Below are positions 8,914 to 15,452 of a DNA stretch of 46,522 nt, in pieces (the stretch's first letter is position 1; the number at the start of each line of letters is the position of its first letter). The stretch spans positions 1 through 46,522 of the forward strand of contig DXJF01000022.1 of assembly GCA_019057375.1 (NCBI GenBank). The letters are read 5' to 3'. The stretch comes from Candidatus Heimdallarchaeota archaeon (lineage in GTDB: Archaea; Asgardarchaeota; Heimdallarchaeia; Heimdallarchaeales; Heimdallarchaeaceae). The position numbers and the translations under genes were made by a program. The notes below the pieces were generated by a model. The model did not search any database, was not told the DNA's origin, and worked only from the letters and a program-made list of their open reading frames with translations.

Positions 8914-10521
8914 ATGGAATTGCTATCAATGACTGTTGCTCTTCATAATTATTTGAAAGGAATAAACCTCGATGAATTCGTTGTCAATGTAAAGGACAGG
9001 AGTAAATTTGAAGAAATTCTTACCCATCTTGGGTTAGACTCTAACTTTTCACTAGAGAAGTTTGTTGAACATCTGTTGTATGAGAGTAAAATATTCCTTA
9101 ACAAAGAAAAACGAAAAGAAGCCTTGATTATATTAAAAGCTACTAAGCCCTTGCTTAATCTGGTTCCAAAGTATTTGAGCGCGTTCTTCTATCTCACTTT
9201 AACTGATTCATTTATTCTAGCTAATGATTATGAAGGAGCAACAAAATCTGTTAATCGTGCAAATTCTATAGCTGAAGAACTGAATGATCCTAGGCTTATA
9301 GTAAGAGTTCTAAATCTCATGTTTGTTATTAATAGAACTGTTTTGAAGGACAAAGCTGTAGAATTTTTACTTAAATCTAAGGAAATCTCTGAAAAGAATG
9401 AATTCTATGAAAATATAGTTTTTTGTGATGTTAATATTGGTTTGATGCACTTTTTCAAAAAAGAATACAGTAAAGCTGCTGAATATTGCTCATATGTAAT
9501 TGATCTCATTACGACAAAGAAATATCCTAATAATAAGTTGATTATGCCAGCTGATTGTTTTCTTCAGATCTTTTCTGAAAGCCCAGAACTTGTTGCTAAT
9601 CCTAAGAACCAAGATATGATTTTGAAAGGTGTCACTGTTGTACTTAGAACTATCAAACAATTCAAATCAGATTATGAAGCAACTCGAAGACTTTCTATAC
9701 TTGTAAGTTTTCTAAAACTTTCTGAAAACTTAATTGAACGCTCTCTGAAAGAAATCGATTTGTTTATTGAGAATCTTCCCAAGGATAAAAGATCTCTTTA
9801 TTATTATGGAATCGCAAATGGGATAGCCAATTTCAAAGATTATAAAGTGTCACTAGTTTATTTTGAGAAAGCAATAAGTCAGATGAAAAACCTGAAGGAT
9901 GAAGAACAAAGAAGAATAAAGAAAAACTATGCATATACTCTTTCTATCACCATGGAAACTACAATGATTTACGATTTGGAGACTTCACAACAGACATCTC
10001 AAAGGCTTAAAGGATTAAGAATTAAAACAAATGAAGATAATCTCGCTGGGAAAAAAGACAAGCAAATTAATTATAGAAATTCAGTAAGTGATTCAGATGC
10101 GGTTTTTGGTGTAAAAAGAGATTTTTTGGAGAAAAAATTGCTCAACAGTATTAAGAATCATTATACACAAAGAGAAATAATAACTGGTTTTTCATATCAG
10201 AACAGTAGAAACGACATCTTGAACCATTTGGAGATGTTTGTAATAAATGCACTTAACCAGAATGATGAATTATTATCACTTCTCTTAGTGGGTACAACAA
10301 TTAGTGAAAAAGACTCAAAGAAGAAGAAGCGTACTTTTACAGGATACCAAATTCTAGGTCATAGGGTGCCTAAGTCAATATTAGATACAAAACACTTCGA
10401 AGACTTTGATATCAAATTCCTTTATGATTTAGTTACTGCTCCCCAAAAGTTTAAACAAATTGAGATTATAACTCCACACGAATCTTTAGAAACAGACTAT
10501 AAGAGAATTTTAAGCAAATAG
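8914..10521 (+). CDS. TPR-like helical repeat protein with unknown C-terminal domain
   Basis: 535 aa. TPR-like motifs such as 'NIGLMHFFKKEYSKAAEY' and 'LVYFEKAI'. Confidence 0.55.
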   Translation: MELLSMTVALHNYLKGINLDEFVVNVKDRSKFEEILTHLGLDSNFSLEKFVEHLLYESKIFLNKEKRKEALIILKATKPLLNLVPKYLSAFFYLTLTDSFILANDYEGATKSVNRANSIAEELNDPRLIVRVLNLMFVINRTVLKDKAVEFLLKSKEISEKNEFYENIVFCDVNIGLMHFFKKEYSKAAEYCSYVIDLITTKKYPNNKLIMPADCFLQIFSESPELVANPKNQDMILKGVTVVLRTIKQFKSDYEATRRLSILVSFLKLSENLIERSLKEIDLFIENLPKDKRSLYYYGIANGIANFKDYKVSLVYFEKAISQMKNLKDEEQRRIKKNYAYTLSITMETTMIYDLETSQQTSQRLKGLRIKTNEDNLAGKKDKQINYRNSVSDSDAVFGVKRDFLEKKLLNSIKNHYTQREIITGFSYQNSRNDILNHLEMFVINALNQNDELLSLLLVGTTISEKDSKKKKRTFTGYQILGHRVPKSILDTKHFEDFDIKFLYDLVTAPQKFKQIEIITPHESLETDYKRILSK

Positions 10522-11439: not shown

Positions 11440-13197
11440 CTAACTTATGAAGAACAATGGCTTTTCTTCATAGCTTTTATTTACATTATCCCAGTCAATT
11501 TCTCGAGCAAGTGTTCTCTTCCCTGAGTCGATTATATTATTGACTCTTCTAGCATGTAAAATTTCGTTTGCTTTCCTAATAAGTGATCTTCTTTGATAAT
11601 TTGGTTCAGGTCTTGCTACTGTCAAAGCAGTTTTTGCTTGTTTTTCAGCTAAGATACCAATTACCACCTTATCTCCTTTGACGAATTCTACTAATCGAAA
11701 AACTTCAGGATTCAACTTATTTTCAAAGAAAGCTTCTTCGGGAATTATTGATAGTATCTTCTCAATATAACTAACTGATATAAACCTTTTAGCTATTTCT
11801 ACGATACCAATCACTGGATCTAAGAATTCAGTAGGAAACCGAATGGGTGATTCAGAATAGAAAACTGTTGGCTGGGTTTGTTTCTGTTTGGATTCAATCA
11901 CACCACTAATAATAAAATTATCTTCTCGGAAGGAGTCGTAAACTTCTTCGCCTATACCAATACCAGATACACTGGTCATTATCATTTCATCCAGAATCAG
12001 TCGAGACCAAGCATCAATTGGTATCGTTTTCTTAATTGTTGATTTCCTAATTTTAGGCTCCTTTTTCTTCTTGAAAACAGAGAAAAGTTTTCTAAAGAAA
12101 CCTGTAGGCTCAGGTTGTTCTTCAATTTCAATTTTTTCTTCTGTAATTTCTCTTTCTTCCTTAACTCGTCTAAAAACATCCATTTGAGGCAAATTTTTCT
12201 TGAATTTTTCAAATGCACTAATATCTTCTAATTTTAGTTGTAGAAGAGCTTCAACTTCCTTGAGATTAATATCATCTAGAGGACTTAGTAATCCTATCCA
12301 CCCTTCAGCTGTTGCAGTCCTGGCATGAACAACAAAAAAATTGATTTCTGAGGTTATTGATTCTAGCTTATTTGTAAATCTGATATACTTTAATATATGA
12401 GGATAATCTCCACTCAACAGCTTTGTAGTACTCTTGAATTCCTTGGTAACTTGTGCAGTCTTAAGCACTGGTATAAGGGATTCAAATTTTTCACCTTTGG
12501 TTTCACCATCTTGCCATCTGAAGTAATAAAACATTGTTGATTCCTTGAAATAAGGGATTGGAACAGCTGGATTTGGTTCTCCTTCTGTTTCATTAGCAAA
12601 ATGTTTGGCAATAATCTGCGAGATAATTCCTGTTTGTTGTGATTCCATAATATTTCGAAGGTTCTTCCATTTTTCCAAGGATTTTGAAAAAATAGATTGG
12701 CACAAAGCAGTTTCAATCAGGAATGCAGCCCACCATGGTGGAATGTATTGCATTTTTTCTCCTACAAATACCAAAAGATGTCTGGTATAATAATCTGCAA
12801 CTAATGCAGCCGCTATATGTTTGGCAACTCCTCGATCAAGAAGATAGTAGAATCTCTTTCTCAATATAGACGCAACTTTGAAAGAAAATGCTACAAGATG
12901 TGTTAATTCATACCATGCTTCTTCCTTAGGTAATGACAATTTTTTCCAAAAATCAATAATTTCTTGTCTTCTTACAGAATCCTCTAGTTCAAACTTCACT
13001 TCAGAAGACATTATGATATAATCAGCAGTGTAGAGAGCAGAAAGAACTAGATTATTTGAGTTATCATAATCTGTTTGAAATTCCCCTATCAAGTCTTTAC
13101 TCATTACTTTATAACGTTCAAATAGAGTTTGAAGTTGATGAACCCTTTTAGTTTCTTGATATTCTTTCTCTAAAAATTGGTAAACAGCATCCTTCAT
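11440..13197 (-). CDS. Hypothetical protein, 585 aa
   Basis: Long, clean ORF with no recognisable motif. It is divergently transcribed from the TnpB-like locus. Confidence 0.75.
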   Translation of the reverse strand: MKDAVYQFLEKEYQETKRVHQLQTLFERYKVMSKDLIGEFQTDYDNSNNLVLSALYTADYIIMSSEVKFELEDSVRRQEIIDFWKKLSLPKEEAWYELTHLVAFSFKVASILRKRFYYLLDRGVAKHIAAALVADYYTRHLLVFVGEKMQYIPPWWAAFLIETALCQSIFSKSLEKWKNLRNIMESQQTGIISQIIAKHFANETEGEPNPAVPIPYFKESTMFYYFRWQDGETKGEKFESLIPVLKTAQVTKEFKSTTKLLSGDYPHILKYIRFTNKLESITSEINFFVVHARTATAEGWIGLLSPLDDINLKEVEALLQLKLEDISAFEKFKKNLPQMDVFRRVKEEREITEEKIEIEEQPEPTGFFRKLFSVFKKKKEPKIRKSTIKKTIPIDAWSRLILDEMIMTSVSGIGIGEEVYDSFREDNFIISGVIESKQKQTQPTVFYSESPIRFPTEFLDPVIGIVEIAKRFISVSYIEKILSIIPEEAFFENKLNPEVFRLVEFVKGDKVVIGILAEKQAKTALTVARPEPNYQRRSLIRKANEILHARRVNNIIDSGKRTLAREIDWDNVNKSYEEKPLFFIS

Positions 13198-13252: not shown

Positions 13253-13272
13253 TGTAAAAAAGAAATTAATTT

Positions 13273-13345
13273 TGCGTGAATTGTGATGAGGGTTTTACCG
13301 TTGGAGTTCTTAACCGTGAAATAAAAGGCACCTCTGAATTCCGCA
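13273..13345 (+). ncRNA. C/D-box-like (K-turn) structured RNA, copy 1
   Basis: Box C GTGATGA 13283-13289 and box D CTGA 13334-13337. Terminal stem TGCG(T)GAAT/ATTCCGCA with a 3-nt bulge before the GA gives K-turn geometry. Internal hairpin spans 13293-13321. Confidence 0.65.
13327..13339 (+). repeat. GGCACCTCTGAAT direct repeat, copy 1 (copy 2 at 15434-15446)
   Basis: Exact 13-bp match. TGATGAG, TTGGAG and TGAAA are also shared in the same order upstream of each copy. Confidence 0.9.
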
Positions 13346-13393
13346 TTAATTTCTTAAATAAGAGATATTTGTCTGAATAACAAATTTGCCGAG

Positions 13394-13401
13394 TTTATAA
13401 A
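13394..13401 (+). promoter_or_regulatory. TATA box for the TnpB-like gene (leaderless transcript likely)
   Basis: TTTATAAA lies 26 nt before GTG 13427. Confidence 0.45.
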
Positions 13402-13426
13402 TCAAACTTCTGATTATATAGTAGAT

Positions 13427-15388
13427 GTGACTTTGACCTCTCAAAACTCCATAAAAGATGAAAATATTGTAATCAGAACCTATCGAATGGGTGTTAGGTT
13501 TCATGGTTCAAAAGAAACTCGTCGATTATTAGAGATAGAAGCTAATTCAAGAATTGCAAGATTACAAACTGAACAAGAGGACTTTATATTTGATGACAAT
13601 GCTCATGAGATTGCTTTATCAATAGTTAACCAGAAATTAGATATACCACCTAAATTTGCTCCACGAGAAATCCAAAAATCAACAAAAAAATATTCTAACA
13701 TTGCTGATAGTGCATATTATTGGCTCTACTTGGCATCAAAAAGTACTGCAATAAGGGAAGAGAAGGTTAAGAAAATGCTTTCTTTATTCAAGATTTGGGG
13801 GTATCAGGCTGTAGAGTGGATACTTTTTGGTAGATCTCCTAGAGTTGAAAAAAGATTATATCTAGATTGGCAAGTTCGTCGTATATTTGTTATTAACTTA
13901 CTCCACAGCACTCGTAGAAAATTTGATAAGATTTGCCCAAAGGAGCTGAAACTTTCCTCAAAAATCCCAACAATATCCGAAAAAGAACTAGAACAAAACA
14001 TTAAACGATGTTCTACATCAATAACTAAAGAAATTGTCTCCTCCCAACAACAAATAACAGATAAGTCTTATGCTTTTATGGACAAATTGCATCTACTTGA
14101 GCAGAATTCGAAAATAACAGCTTCACTTCTTCATAAGTGGATAACTGAAGTAACAAGTTCACGTTGGAAGAGTTTAAAGAATTGTGCTAATTCTCTTTCT
14201 GAAGTACTTGGAAAACCAAAGGGCAGTCTGTTTTCAGCAATGCGAACAATTGTAGCCTTTGCACTTTATCCTAAAATAGGACAAACTGTATCAAAAGTAA
14301 TTAGTCAAGTACTCCTAGAAGAAATAGTTCCAAAACCATTTGAAAGAAAAAGAAAAGGAAAATTACCTATCATCCTACTCATGAAAAAAAACTATGTTGT
14401 TGTACGACCTGGAAATTCAGCAGAAATGACAAATTTAGCAAAAATACATGGTCGATTTCAGATAGGATTCACTCAGCAAGGCAAAAAAAGAATAAATGGA
14501 ACTTTGATTTTCCCAAAACGAGTTCAAACAATGTTGAAACAAGGAGCTAAAATCAAAGTACTTCAAATTAGAAGTGGATGTGCTCCAAATTACAAACTTA
14601 ATGTTTCAGTCACTTTAGAAGGTAGTCCATGGGTTTTCTTCGGATTAACAAACGTAAAATCGTTAGGTGAAAAAATAAAGTGTCCTTCTAATTTAGTAAT
14701 TGGTTTAGATATCAATCGCCTTGGAAAATACACTGTAGCGTTATCTAATGAAGTACCATTACCAAAGATAATTCTAAAGTTAATAAACAGATATCATCTA
14801 TTAACTAGAAAGATAATACCAGATTTGAATAGAAGTCTTAAATTTAGTGGAAAAAGAAAGGATAATTTAAGTTATACAAAACTCAAAGGTGAATTATCTC
14901 GAGTTTATAGGAGACGAAGTAATATATTAAGAGAAATAAAACATCAAATAACCTGTTTTATTGCTTCAACTATTGTTAGAAGTAATTGCAAAGCTTTGTG
15001 TGTAGAGGATTTGGAATTTAATCCGATTGGTTTGAAAGGAGCATTAGCTAAGATTTTCTTTTCATTTCCAGATGAAATTAACATATACGAGAAAGCAATA
15101 TCGTTGGCTTCATACTTTCTGGGTTACAAAGTTCAATTAATACCAGTTAATCCAAGCAATACTAGCAAGTATCACTATAACTGTGGAGGTAGAATAGAAA
15201 GAACTAATAGATTCTACGATAATGCCAAATGTGAGAAATGTAATGAAATGGTTAATACGCATATAAATGCTGCACGAAATATAAAGGATAAAGGAATAAA
15301 AAAGCTATCAGAATTACAGTCCCTTTCTGCATACGAGGGCAAAGACTTCAGTCTTCAAGCAAGTCAACTTACATATAGTAATGATTGA
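13427..15388 (+). CDS. tnpB: Large TnpB/Cas12-like RuvC protein
   Basis: RuvC-I VIGLDIN, RuvC-II LCVEDL, 'VNPSNTSKYHYNCG', zinc ribbon CEKC and RuvC-III-like NTHINAARNI. At 653 aa it has an expanded N-terminal helical region. Confidence 0.85.
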   Translation: MTLTSQNSIKDENIVIRTYRMGVRFHGSKETRRLLEIEANSRIARLQTEQEDFIFDDNAHEIALSIVNQKLDIPPKFAPREIQKSTKKYSNIADSAYYWLYLASKSTAIREEKVKKMLSLFKIWGYQAVEWILFGRSPRVEKRLYLDWQVRRIFVINLLHSTRRKFDKICPKELKLSSKIPTISEKELEQNIKRCSTSITKEIVSSQQQITDKSYAFMDKLHLLEQNSKITASLLHKWITEVTSSRWKSLKNCANSLSEVLGKPKGSLFSAMRTIVAFALYPKIGQTVSKVISQVLLEEIVPKPFERKRKGKLPIILLMKKNYVVVRPGNSAEMTNLAKIHGRFQIGFTQQGKKRINGTLIFPKRVQTMLKQGAKIKVLQIRSGCAPNYKLNVSVTLEGSPWVFFGLTNVKSLGEKIKCPSNLVIGLDINRLGKYTVALSNEVPLPKIILKLINRYHLLTRKIIPDLNRSLKFSGKRKDNLSYTKLKGELSRVYRRRSNILREIKHQITCFIASTIVRSNCKALCVEDLEFNPIGLKGALAKIFFSFPDEINIYEKAISLASYFLGYKVQLIPVNPSNTSKYHYNCGGRIERTNRFYDNAKCEKCNEMVNTHINAARNIKDKGIKKLSELQSLSAYEGKDFSLQASQLTYSND

Positions 15389-15452
15389 TGAGTTTCATAG
15401 TATGCATTGGAGCGTAAAAGCTATGAAAATAACGGCACCTCTGAATCTGCGC
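15319..15452 (+). ncRNA. omegaRNA-like 3' RNA containing C/D-box-like copy 2
   Basis: Hairpins lie in the CDS tail (CCCT/AGGG 15321-15339; AAGAC-TTCA-GTCTT 15342-15355). Box C TTGATGA 15385-15391 overlaps the stop codon, followed by an 8-bp stem TTTCATAG/CTATGAAA and box D CTGA 15441-15444. Confidence 0.6.
15434..15446 (+). repeat. GGCACCTCTGAAT direct repeat, copy 2
   Basis: Exact match to 13327-13339. Confidence 0.9.

Follow-up and report, generated by a model that had tools for sequence, protein, structure and literature searches.

In a 46,522-nucleotide (nt) stretch of contig DXJF01000022.1 (assembly GCA_019057375.1) from Candidatus Heimdallarchaeota archaeon, here called the window, a TnpB-family gene has been inserted into a gene for a box C/D small RNA (sRNA). 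The gene occupies positions 13427-15388 of the window on the + strand, where the features of the element and of the sRNA gene described below also lie; it begins with a GTG start and encodes a protein of 653 residues whose RuvC active site reads D-E-H. We consider it likely, with a probability of about 0.62, that this protein is an RNA-guided nuclease, active or modified, and that it drives a cut-and-replace element. The data show conserved motifs in the protein, an RNA scaffold, polymorphism of the insertion, identity between the guide and its target, recoding of the resident sRNA allele, and a protein under purifying selection.

Membership in the TnpB family is indicated by a match to PF07282, the TNB zinc ribbon (31.6 bits, with a cut-off of 26.3), which is the sole Pfam domain above its cut-off, and by an AlphaFold2 model and its structural matches. 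The NCBIfam model guided_TnpB also aligns with residues 416-621 (47.6 bits, E 1.4e-12), below its cut-off of 100. The AlphaFold2 model, built from 51 homologs and having a mean predicted local distance difference test score (pLDDT) of 85.2, contains the domain layout of the TnpB/OMEGA family, that is, a RuvC domain with three motifs, a zinc ribbon between motifs II and III, and WED and REC domains ahead of them. In order along the protein, these are a WED strand (residues 15-25), a helical REC (29-300), WED again (343-399), and RuvC with the inserted zinc ribbon (424-637). The top structural match is Cas12f (Z 13.0), followed by ISDra2 TnpB (Z 12.7, with about 334 residues superposed across model residues 13-629) and ISFba1 TnpB (Z 11.8). 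The original prediction, made from the letters of the DNA and a list of its open reading frames (ORFs), had described an enlarged TnpB with an expanded helical N-terminal region. The model and its superposition on ISDra2 TnpB bear this out, and the extra length is found in an all-helical block, residues 29-300, which makes a REC of about 270 residues.

Two members of the family's D-E-D triad are present: Asp428 in the RuvC-I motif G-L-D-I-N-R (GLDIN; codon 14708-14710) and Glu527 in the RuvC-II sequence VEDL (codon 15005-15007). The third position departs from it. Within the RuvC-III sequence NTHINAARNI, the canonical catalytic Asp is replaced by His612 (codon CAT, 15260-15262), which aligns by HMMER with the RuvC-III Asp of solved Cas12f chains (NADFNA or NADYNA) and which, in the model, lies at the N-terminus of the helix 611-637. 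The zinc ribbon, or TNB domain (15173-15241), has the ligands H583, C586, C602, and C605. Its first pair is HYNC (H583 and C586, 15173-15184) rather than CxxC, and its second is CEKC (C602 and C605, 15230-15241); in the same alignment, H583 falls opposite the first zinc cysteine of the Cas12f chains. Thus, both the altered triad and the altered zinc pair, as they had been read from the sequence, have held up. The remaining conserved acidic residues, E489, E503, and D598, are located, as judged from sequence alone, far along a long helix or in the zinc ribbon, and position 532 of the 653-residue protein is Asn.

The histidine is a conserved trait of an Asgard-wide clade and not a private mutation. 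Of the 51 aligned homologs, which are 36-93% identical to the protein and belong, where named, to metagenome bins of Heimdall and Thor archaea, 49 carry His at position 612 and 1 carries Gln; the remaining protein is truncated and lacks the position. The concern that close homologs might carry Asp, which would have made the His private to this copy, is therefore removed. D428, E527, and all four zinc ligands are invariant in the same set. A wider profile search of 1.84 billion representatives gave 434 clusters at E <= 0.001, and residues were counted in the best 150 of these. Position 612 is covered by 121 clusters (His 115, Gln 5, Asp 1), the RuvC-II residue by 122 (E 106, D 15, H 1), and the first zinc ligand by 124 (H 107, C 16, N 1), while the RuvC-I residue is Asp in 101 of 101; named members are Heimdall, Odin, Hod, Loki, and Hel archaea. 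RuvC-I has a further peculiarity, since it reads D-x-N-R (D428-I-N430-R431, 14708-14719) where the usual form is D-x-G. N430 is likewise shared by 101 of 101 representative clusters and may belong to the active site as a co-adapted residue.

Empty sites in related genomes identify this TnpB-only derivative as an insertion. In two sister species (G011 and G018), both flanks match the window at 92-94% identity, but positions 13352-15406 are missing; the two flanks overlap by 51 bp at the empty site. The site of a third species (G016) is likewise empty and lacks the same positions. The element is about 2.1 kb in length, contains the tnpB-like gene as its sole gene, and is inserted at the D' box of the sRNA. 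Alignment to the empty sites of G011 and G018 places a core hexamer, TTGGAG, at the left junction (13301-13306) and the same hexamer at the right junction (15407-15412). To the right of the element lies the part of the sRNA gene that the insertion displaced, its native 3' half (15407-15452), which is colinear with the empty sites of these two species at 93-100% identity. It extends from the D' box to the 3' strand of the terminal stem (15445-15452), takes in the D box CTGA (15441-15444), and is followed by a T-rich run.

At its left end, the element carries a replacement 3' half of the sRNA (13307-13344). This half is diverged from the native allele and shares just the 6 nt of TTGGAG with the guide. 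Identity to the G011 flank, which is otherwise 93-100%, drops to 74-83% over 13260-13351. In addition, both strands of the terminal stem of the left allele are of the type found in distant members of the genus (G014, G003, and G031) and not of the type found in G011, G009, and G018. The type of the stem and the mismatch to the guide together indicate that the working sRNA of this genome is, to go by the sequence comparison, a foreign allele that was brought in by the element and is mismatched to the guide. The flanking direct repeat was also considered as a target-site duplication; this idea was dropped, as the left copy is the foreign allele.

The sRNA gene itself was previously unannotated. 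In its present, rescue allele it extends from 13274 to 13344, with a terminal stem formed by 13274-13281 and 13338-13344. Between the two strands lie a C box (GTGATGA, 13283-13289), the D' guide (13290-13301), a D' box-like TGGA (13302-13305), a C'-like GTGAAAT (13316-13322), the D guide (13323-13333), and a D box (CTGA, 13334-13337). The gene thus has the features by which a box C/D sRNA is recognized: C and D boxes, internal D' and C' boxes, guides of about 12 nt, a terminal stem, and a guide complementary to rRNA. The 12-nt D' guide is invariant and pairs with the organism's own 16S rRNA at position 467 through 10 Watson-Crick pairs and 1 G-U pair; its target is the GCGGTAAAACC segment, in the GCGGTAA-type 530 loop, and by our own estimate about 0.03 such matches would be expected by chance. 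For the D guide, no rRNA target was found, and a genome-wide 11-mer search gave noise. Across 17 alleles, the terminal stem is paired in 100% of cells, with compensatory changes in 3 of its 8 pairs. In 17 genomes of the genus, the sRNA gene has the same neighbor, a C69 peptidase gene, and in all 16 examined besides the present one it is uninterrupted. No tRNA was detected in the window by ARAGORN, and nothing by Rfam at gathering thresholds; the Rfam model SNORD58 matches the sRNA weakly, with 27.5 bits, short of the gathering score.

The 3' end of the tnpB-like gene appears to double as the scaffold of an omega-RNA. Among paralogs and relatives, conservation at the DNA level covers the last ~70 nt of the ORF together with 17 nt past the stop codon. 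The scaffold is common to 20 loci and ends at a motif, TTCATAGTATGC, which here ends at 15405; beyond this point the loci diverge completely. The mapped part of the scaffold is 15321-15405, and its 5' limit is probably deeper inside the ORF. It comprises hairpin 1, whose C-rich/G-rich stem (15321-15324 with 15336-15339) is kept across the 20 loci, hairpin 2 (15342-15355), and a pseudoknot in which GCATAC in the loop of hairpin 1 (15329-15334) pairs with GTATGC (15400-15405). In the 20-locus alignment, 4 of the 6 pseudoknot pairs show compensatory double changes, and pairing is found in 90% of cells versus 31-58% when the partners are slid. RNAalifold, run on a mixed alignment, recovered hairpin 1 only, and hairpins 2 and 3 were seen by eye. 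A predicted scaffold of this kind, with a pseudoknot adjacent to the guide, is the architecture expected of a TnpB omega-RNA.

The guide segment consists of the first ~20 nt past the scaffold (15406-15427), and it has no other match in the genome with <=2 mismatches. It is sense to the sRNA at this locus, whereas at a paralog the guide is antisense to tRNA-Val; targeting of RNA was rejected as unlikely on this basis. A possible AC at -4/-3 was entertained as a target-adjacent motif (TAM) and was dropped, since it requires shifts of the boundary. At ten other loci of the family (L003, L004, L007, L011-L013, and L017-L020), the guides copy pieces of tRNA genes, and intact or intron-containing tRNA copies often adjoin the element at such loci; the element at L007 is flanked by direct repeats of 38 nt and 34 nt. 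The guide at L015 (G006:C8), just past the scaffold end, resembles G000:C63:7020 and has a C-box-like ATGATGA near it, so its target may be another small-RNA gene.

A second occupied site was found on a metagenome contig (L042). It encodes a protein that is 93% identical to this one, and both the position of the insertion and the foreign left allele are shared. The left flank of this contig is 99% identical to genome G009, and the G009 assembly itself is empty, with an uninterrupted sRNA gene. The site is thus polymorphic within a species. The guide of the metagenome copy is the intact G009 allele, 22 of 22 nt, including the variable loop. Foreign single-nucleotide polymorphisms (SNPs) in the 5' half of the sRNA, to the left of the core, are common to both occupied backgrounds. 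The G009 assembly happens to break at the sRNA locus, where two contig ends (L043, the end of G009:C13, and L024, the start of G009:C178) overlap by about 140 nt, both of them empty; the break looks like an assembly-graph bubble that arose from presence/absence polymorphism.

Comparison of the two occupied copies gives a ratio of nonsynonymous to synonymous divergence (dN/dS) of 0.21 for the protein and 0.15 for its RuvC half. The synonymous divergence (dS) of the element is 0.145 versus 0.278 for the adjacent host gene in the same two DNAs. An element that has diverged less than its host gene suggests spread between species, and the low dS together with the dN/dS values points to movement into the same site across species, followed by purifying selection on the protein.

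These observations can be joined in a mechanism of the following kind. The tail of the mRNA would fold into the omega-RNA scaffold, with its hairpins and pseudoknot, and the displaced native 3' half of the sRNA, which is the flank just past the scaffold, would serve as the guide. The left end of the element would supply the diverged 3' half, which would both rebuild a working sRNA and escape the guide. The protein-RNA complex would find uninterrupted sRNA alleles and cut them by means of its D-E-H RuvC site; repair or recombination would then install the element together with the resistant allele, resulting in a homing-like, cut-and-replace spread. The occurrence of TTGGAG at both junctions and of native-type guides in the two backgrounds is compatible with a crossover or a break at the point of insertion, and the shared foreign markers to the left of the core fit gene conversion. 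A catalytic role of His612, the cleavage itself, and the route by which the element enters its site are inferences. RNase H-fold nucleases such as the PIWI domain of Argonaute use a DEDH site, a precedent that speaks for a working active site here.

Several points weigh against an active cut-and-replace element. Both host backgrounds have guides of the native type, which would not be expected if a cut distal to the TAM were repaired by copying of the donor. The present guide differs from the G011 and G018 alleles by a 2-nt indel after 8 nt. No clear TAM consensus is seen among the 5' neighbors of the five guide-matching targets, and there is no TnpA inside the element. Gln is found at position 612 in 5 representative clusters, suggesting that a general-base His is not strictly required. 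Folded as a single sequence, the scaffold is no more stable than its shuffles (z = -0.24), so the structural case for it rests on covariation. Finally, the literature searched contains no assay of a D-E-H TnpB, and to our knowledge none has been performed.

One alternative is that the protein is a nuclease-dead RNA-guided binder, similar to TldR or to CRISPR interference (CRISPRi), in which the His kills cleavage and the complex binds guide-matching DNA, for instance as a repressor or marker of the sRNA locus. The third carboxylate of the canonical site is indeed gone, Gln is tolerated in five related clusters, and the recoded resident allele would escape mere binding just as well; moreover, exapted inactive derivatives of TnpB are well documented (PMC10691335). 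However, the dead derivatives that are known have lost either the C-terminus or several of their catalytic residues (PMC10691335), whereas in this protein D and E are invariant and the RuvC-III motif is intact save for its Asp. A guide lacking any further match in the genome, an insertion that is polymorphic within and between species and hence no fixed regulator, and an element dS below that of the host, which points to spread, are also difficult to reconcile with a binder. A working nuclease is favored over it by the conserved D-E-H residues, selection on the protein, identity of guide and target, and the resistant resident allele, and we regard the dead binder as unlikely. The original prediction had left the choice between a His-ligand nuclease and a dead, TldR-like binder open. 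The conservation of D-E-H, the dN/dS of 0.15, the polymorphism, and the recoded allele lean toward the nuclease. The analogy to TldR, on the other hand, is unsupported: the RuvC domain is full-length and undecayed, no second match to the guide exists in the genome, and the locus is polymorphic rather than fixed.

Similarly improbable, to about the same degree, is a role as a factor that targets a recombinase. In this scheme the complex would mark the site, an IS607-type serine TnpA acting in trans would integrate a circle by crossover at TTGGAG, and the local flank would become the new guide. IS607 inserts at GG, and TTGGAG, which contains GG, is present at both junctions. Native-type guides in both host backgrounds would be a natural outcome of such integration, and the genome contains four serine recombinase genes. 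All four, however, are outside the element, and no recombinase gene is found in or beside it, or on any contig bearing a member of the family; a Y1 TnpA is absent from the genome. The foreign SNPs in the 5' half that are shared by both backgrounds fit gene conversion and not a precise crossover, and by itself this scheme does not explain why the catalytic residues are conserved. As for a decaying relic, a dead transposon copy with the His as an inactivating mutation of its own, the lack of a TnpA and a closest paralog in the genome of <=47% identity are what it would predict, but a clade-wide His, an intact frame of 653 codons with an ortholog at a dN/dS of 0.21, and a covarying RNA scaffold make it exceedingly improbable.

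If the protein is indeed an active nuclease, a broader proposal can be made, though we hold it only tentatively and at somewhat less than even odds. The locus would be a natural cleave-and-rescue element, in which a D-E-H nuclease is aimed at a conserved, probably important noncoding RNA (ncRNA) gene and carries with it a recoded, guide-resistant copy of the part that it targets. Such an element could invade and hold the same site across species without a transposase, and the whole Asgard clade might do likewise on tRNA, rRNA-trailer, and sRNA genes. A guide taken from the split gene, combined with a resistant replacement, would account for the persistence and spread of TnpB genes that lack a transposase. 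Through this context, which may outweigh the triad in importance, TnpB biology would be connected with that of homing endonucleases and with engineered cleave-and-rescue drives. If D-E-H does cut DNA, it would provide a third catalytic layout for the TnpB/Cas12 toolbox, and the source would be a large Asgard clade of Cas12-sized, CRISPR-free proteins. If the protein merely binds, it would still be a programmable binder of compact size whose natural target is known. Because the natural target and the resistant alleles have both been identified, the idea is directly testable.

The family is widespread in the genus. It is present in 18 of 18 other genomes sampled, and the genome studied here contains ten full-length matches, of which nine have intact frames and one contains an in-frame TGA, as well as a short fragment. 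Identity between copies in this genome is 37-84%, and the 653-residue protein is <=47% identical to any other copy, indicating that it is not a recently multiplying insertion sequence. The paralog with the in-frame TGA (L006, G000:C102:37638-39455) could be a pseudogene or a recoded gene. Among more remote relatives, proteins of 800-1,800 residues from Odin, Hod, and Loki archaea (P0084, P0093, P0112, P0115, P0164, and others) retain the His, and those at a greater distance combine a C4 zinc ribbon with an R-H motif and an Asp in RuvC-II (D-D-H). One of the distant long relatives, P0112, has a weak match to a MazE antitoxin at residues 647-671.

About 25 nt ahead of the GTG start lies a TATA-like box, TTTATAAAT (13394-13402), within a conserved CGAGTTTA-AAT motif that recurs upstream of paralogs; the box is probably the archaeal promoter of the tnpB-like gene. 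Elsewhere in the window, two conserved ORFs have no Pfam family, one of 585 residues at 11440-13197 on the - strand and one of 535 residues at 8914-10521 on the + strand. The 585-residue ORF is conserved in sister species with a dN/dS of 0.14-0.17.

The altered active site has precedents. Six large branches of TnpB with a changed RuvC-III have been described (Altae-Tran et al. 2023, PNAS, PMC10691335). The largest of these is the major clade RIIIr-4, in which Asp is changed to His, the C4 zinc finger is lacking, and archaeal TnpBs linked to ribbon-helix-helix (RHH)/MazE proteins are included; conserved RuvC-III rearrangements were inferred to probably keep nuclease activity (PMC10691335). Thus, the D-E-H triad alone is an already described kind of variant, and the noncanonical chemistry proposed in the original prediction is less new than had been assumed. 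Compared by description, the present protein resembles RIIIr-4 in its conserved His in place of the RuvC-III Asp and its archaea-rich membership. Its zinc motif, H-C-C-C, is not an intact C4 motif but is still a ribbon with four ligands. The protein differs from that description in its size (about 650 residues, with a REC of about 270), in belonging to an Asgard-wide group, and in having no RHH/MazE neighbor. Targets in ncRNA genes and rescue copies go unmentioned in the text of PMC10691335.

The TnpBs of IS607 and IS200/IS605 elements (ISDra2, PDB 8h1j; ISFba1, PDB 8iaz) match in fold. They also share a guide RNA that overlaps the 3' end of the gene, a pseudoknot adjacent to the guide, a guide drawn from the right flank, and presence/absence between genomes. 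In contrast to their D-E-D triad, that of the present protein is D-E-H, and it is about 250 residues larger. Its element lacks TnpA and near-identical copies in the genome, is targeted to a structured RNA gene, and carries a replacement that is mismatched to the guide. Among solved structures, the protein is matched best, in both fold and sequence, by Cas12f (type V-F; PDB 8dzj, 8j3r, and 9nzq). However, the guide here is a single fixed flank and not a spacer, and the 46.5-kb window contains no tandem repeats, CRISPR array, or cas-like neighbors; with no CRISPR array, the protein does not qualify as a Cas12.

TldR and other dead TnpB derivatives are similar in that they are derived from TnpB and have an altered catalytic site and no adjoining transposase. 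Unlike them, the present protein keeps D, E, a conserved His, and a full-length C-terminus, and its locus is polymorphic; a promoter-like second target of the TldR type was not found for the guide in the genome. Homing endonuclease genes and synthetic cleave-and-rescue drives are related by analogy only, yet the parallels are several: occupation of a specific site in one conserved gene, foreign markers that travel along with the element, and resistance of the resident allele. The difference is that in the Heimdallarchaeota element specificity would come from an RNA and not from the protein.

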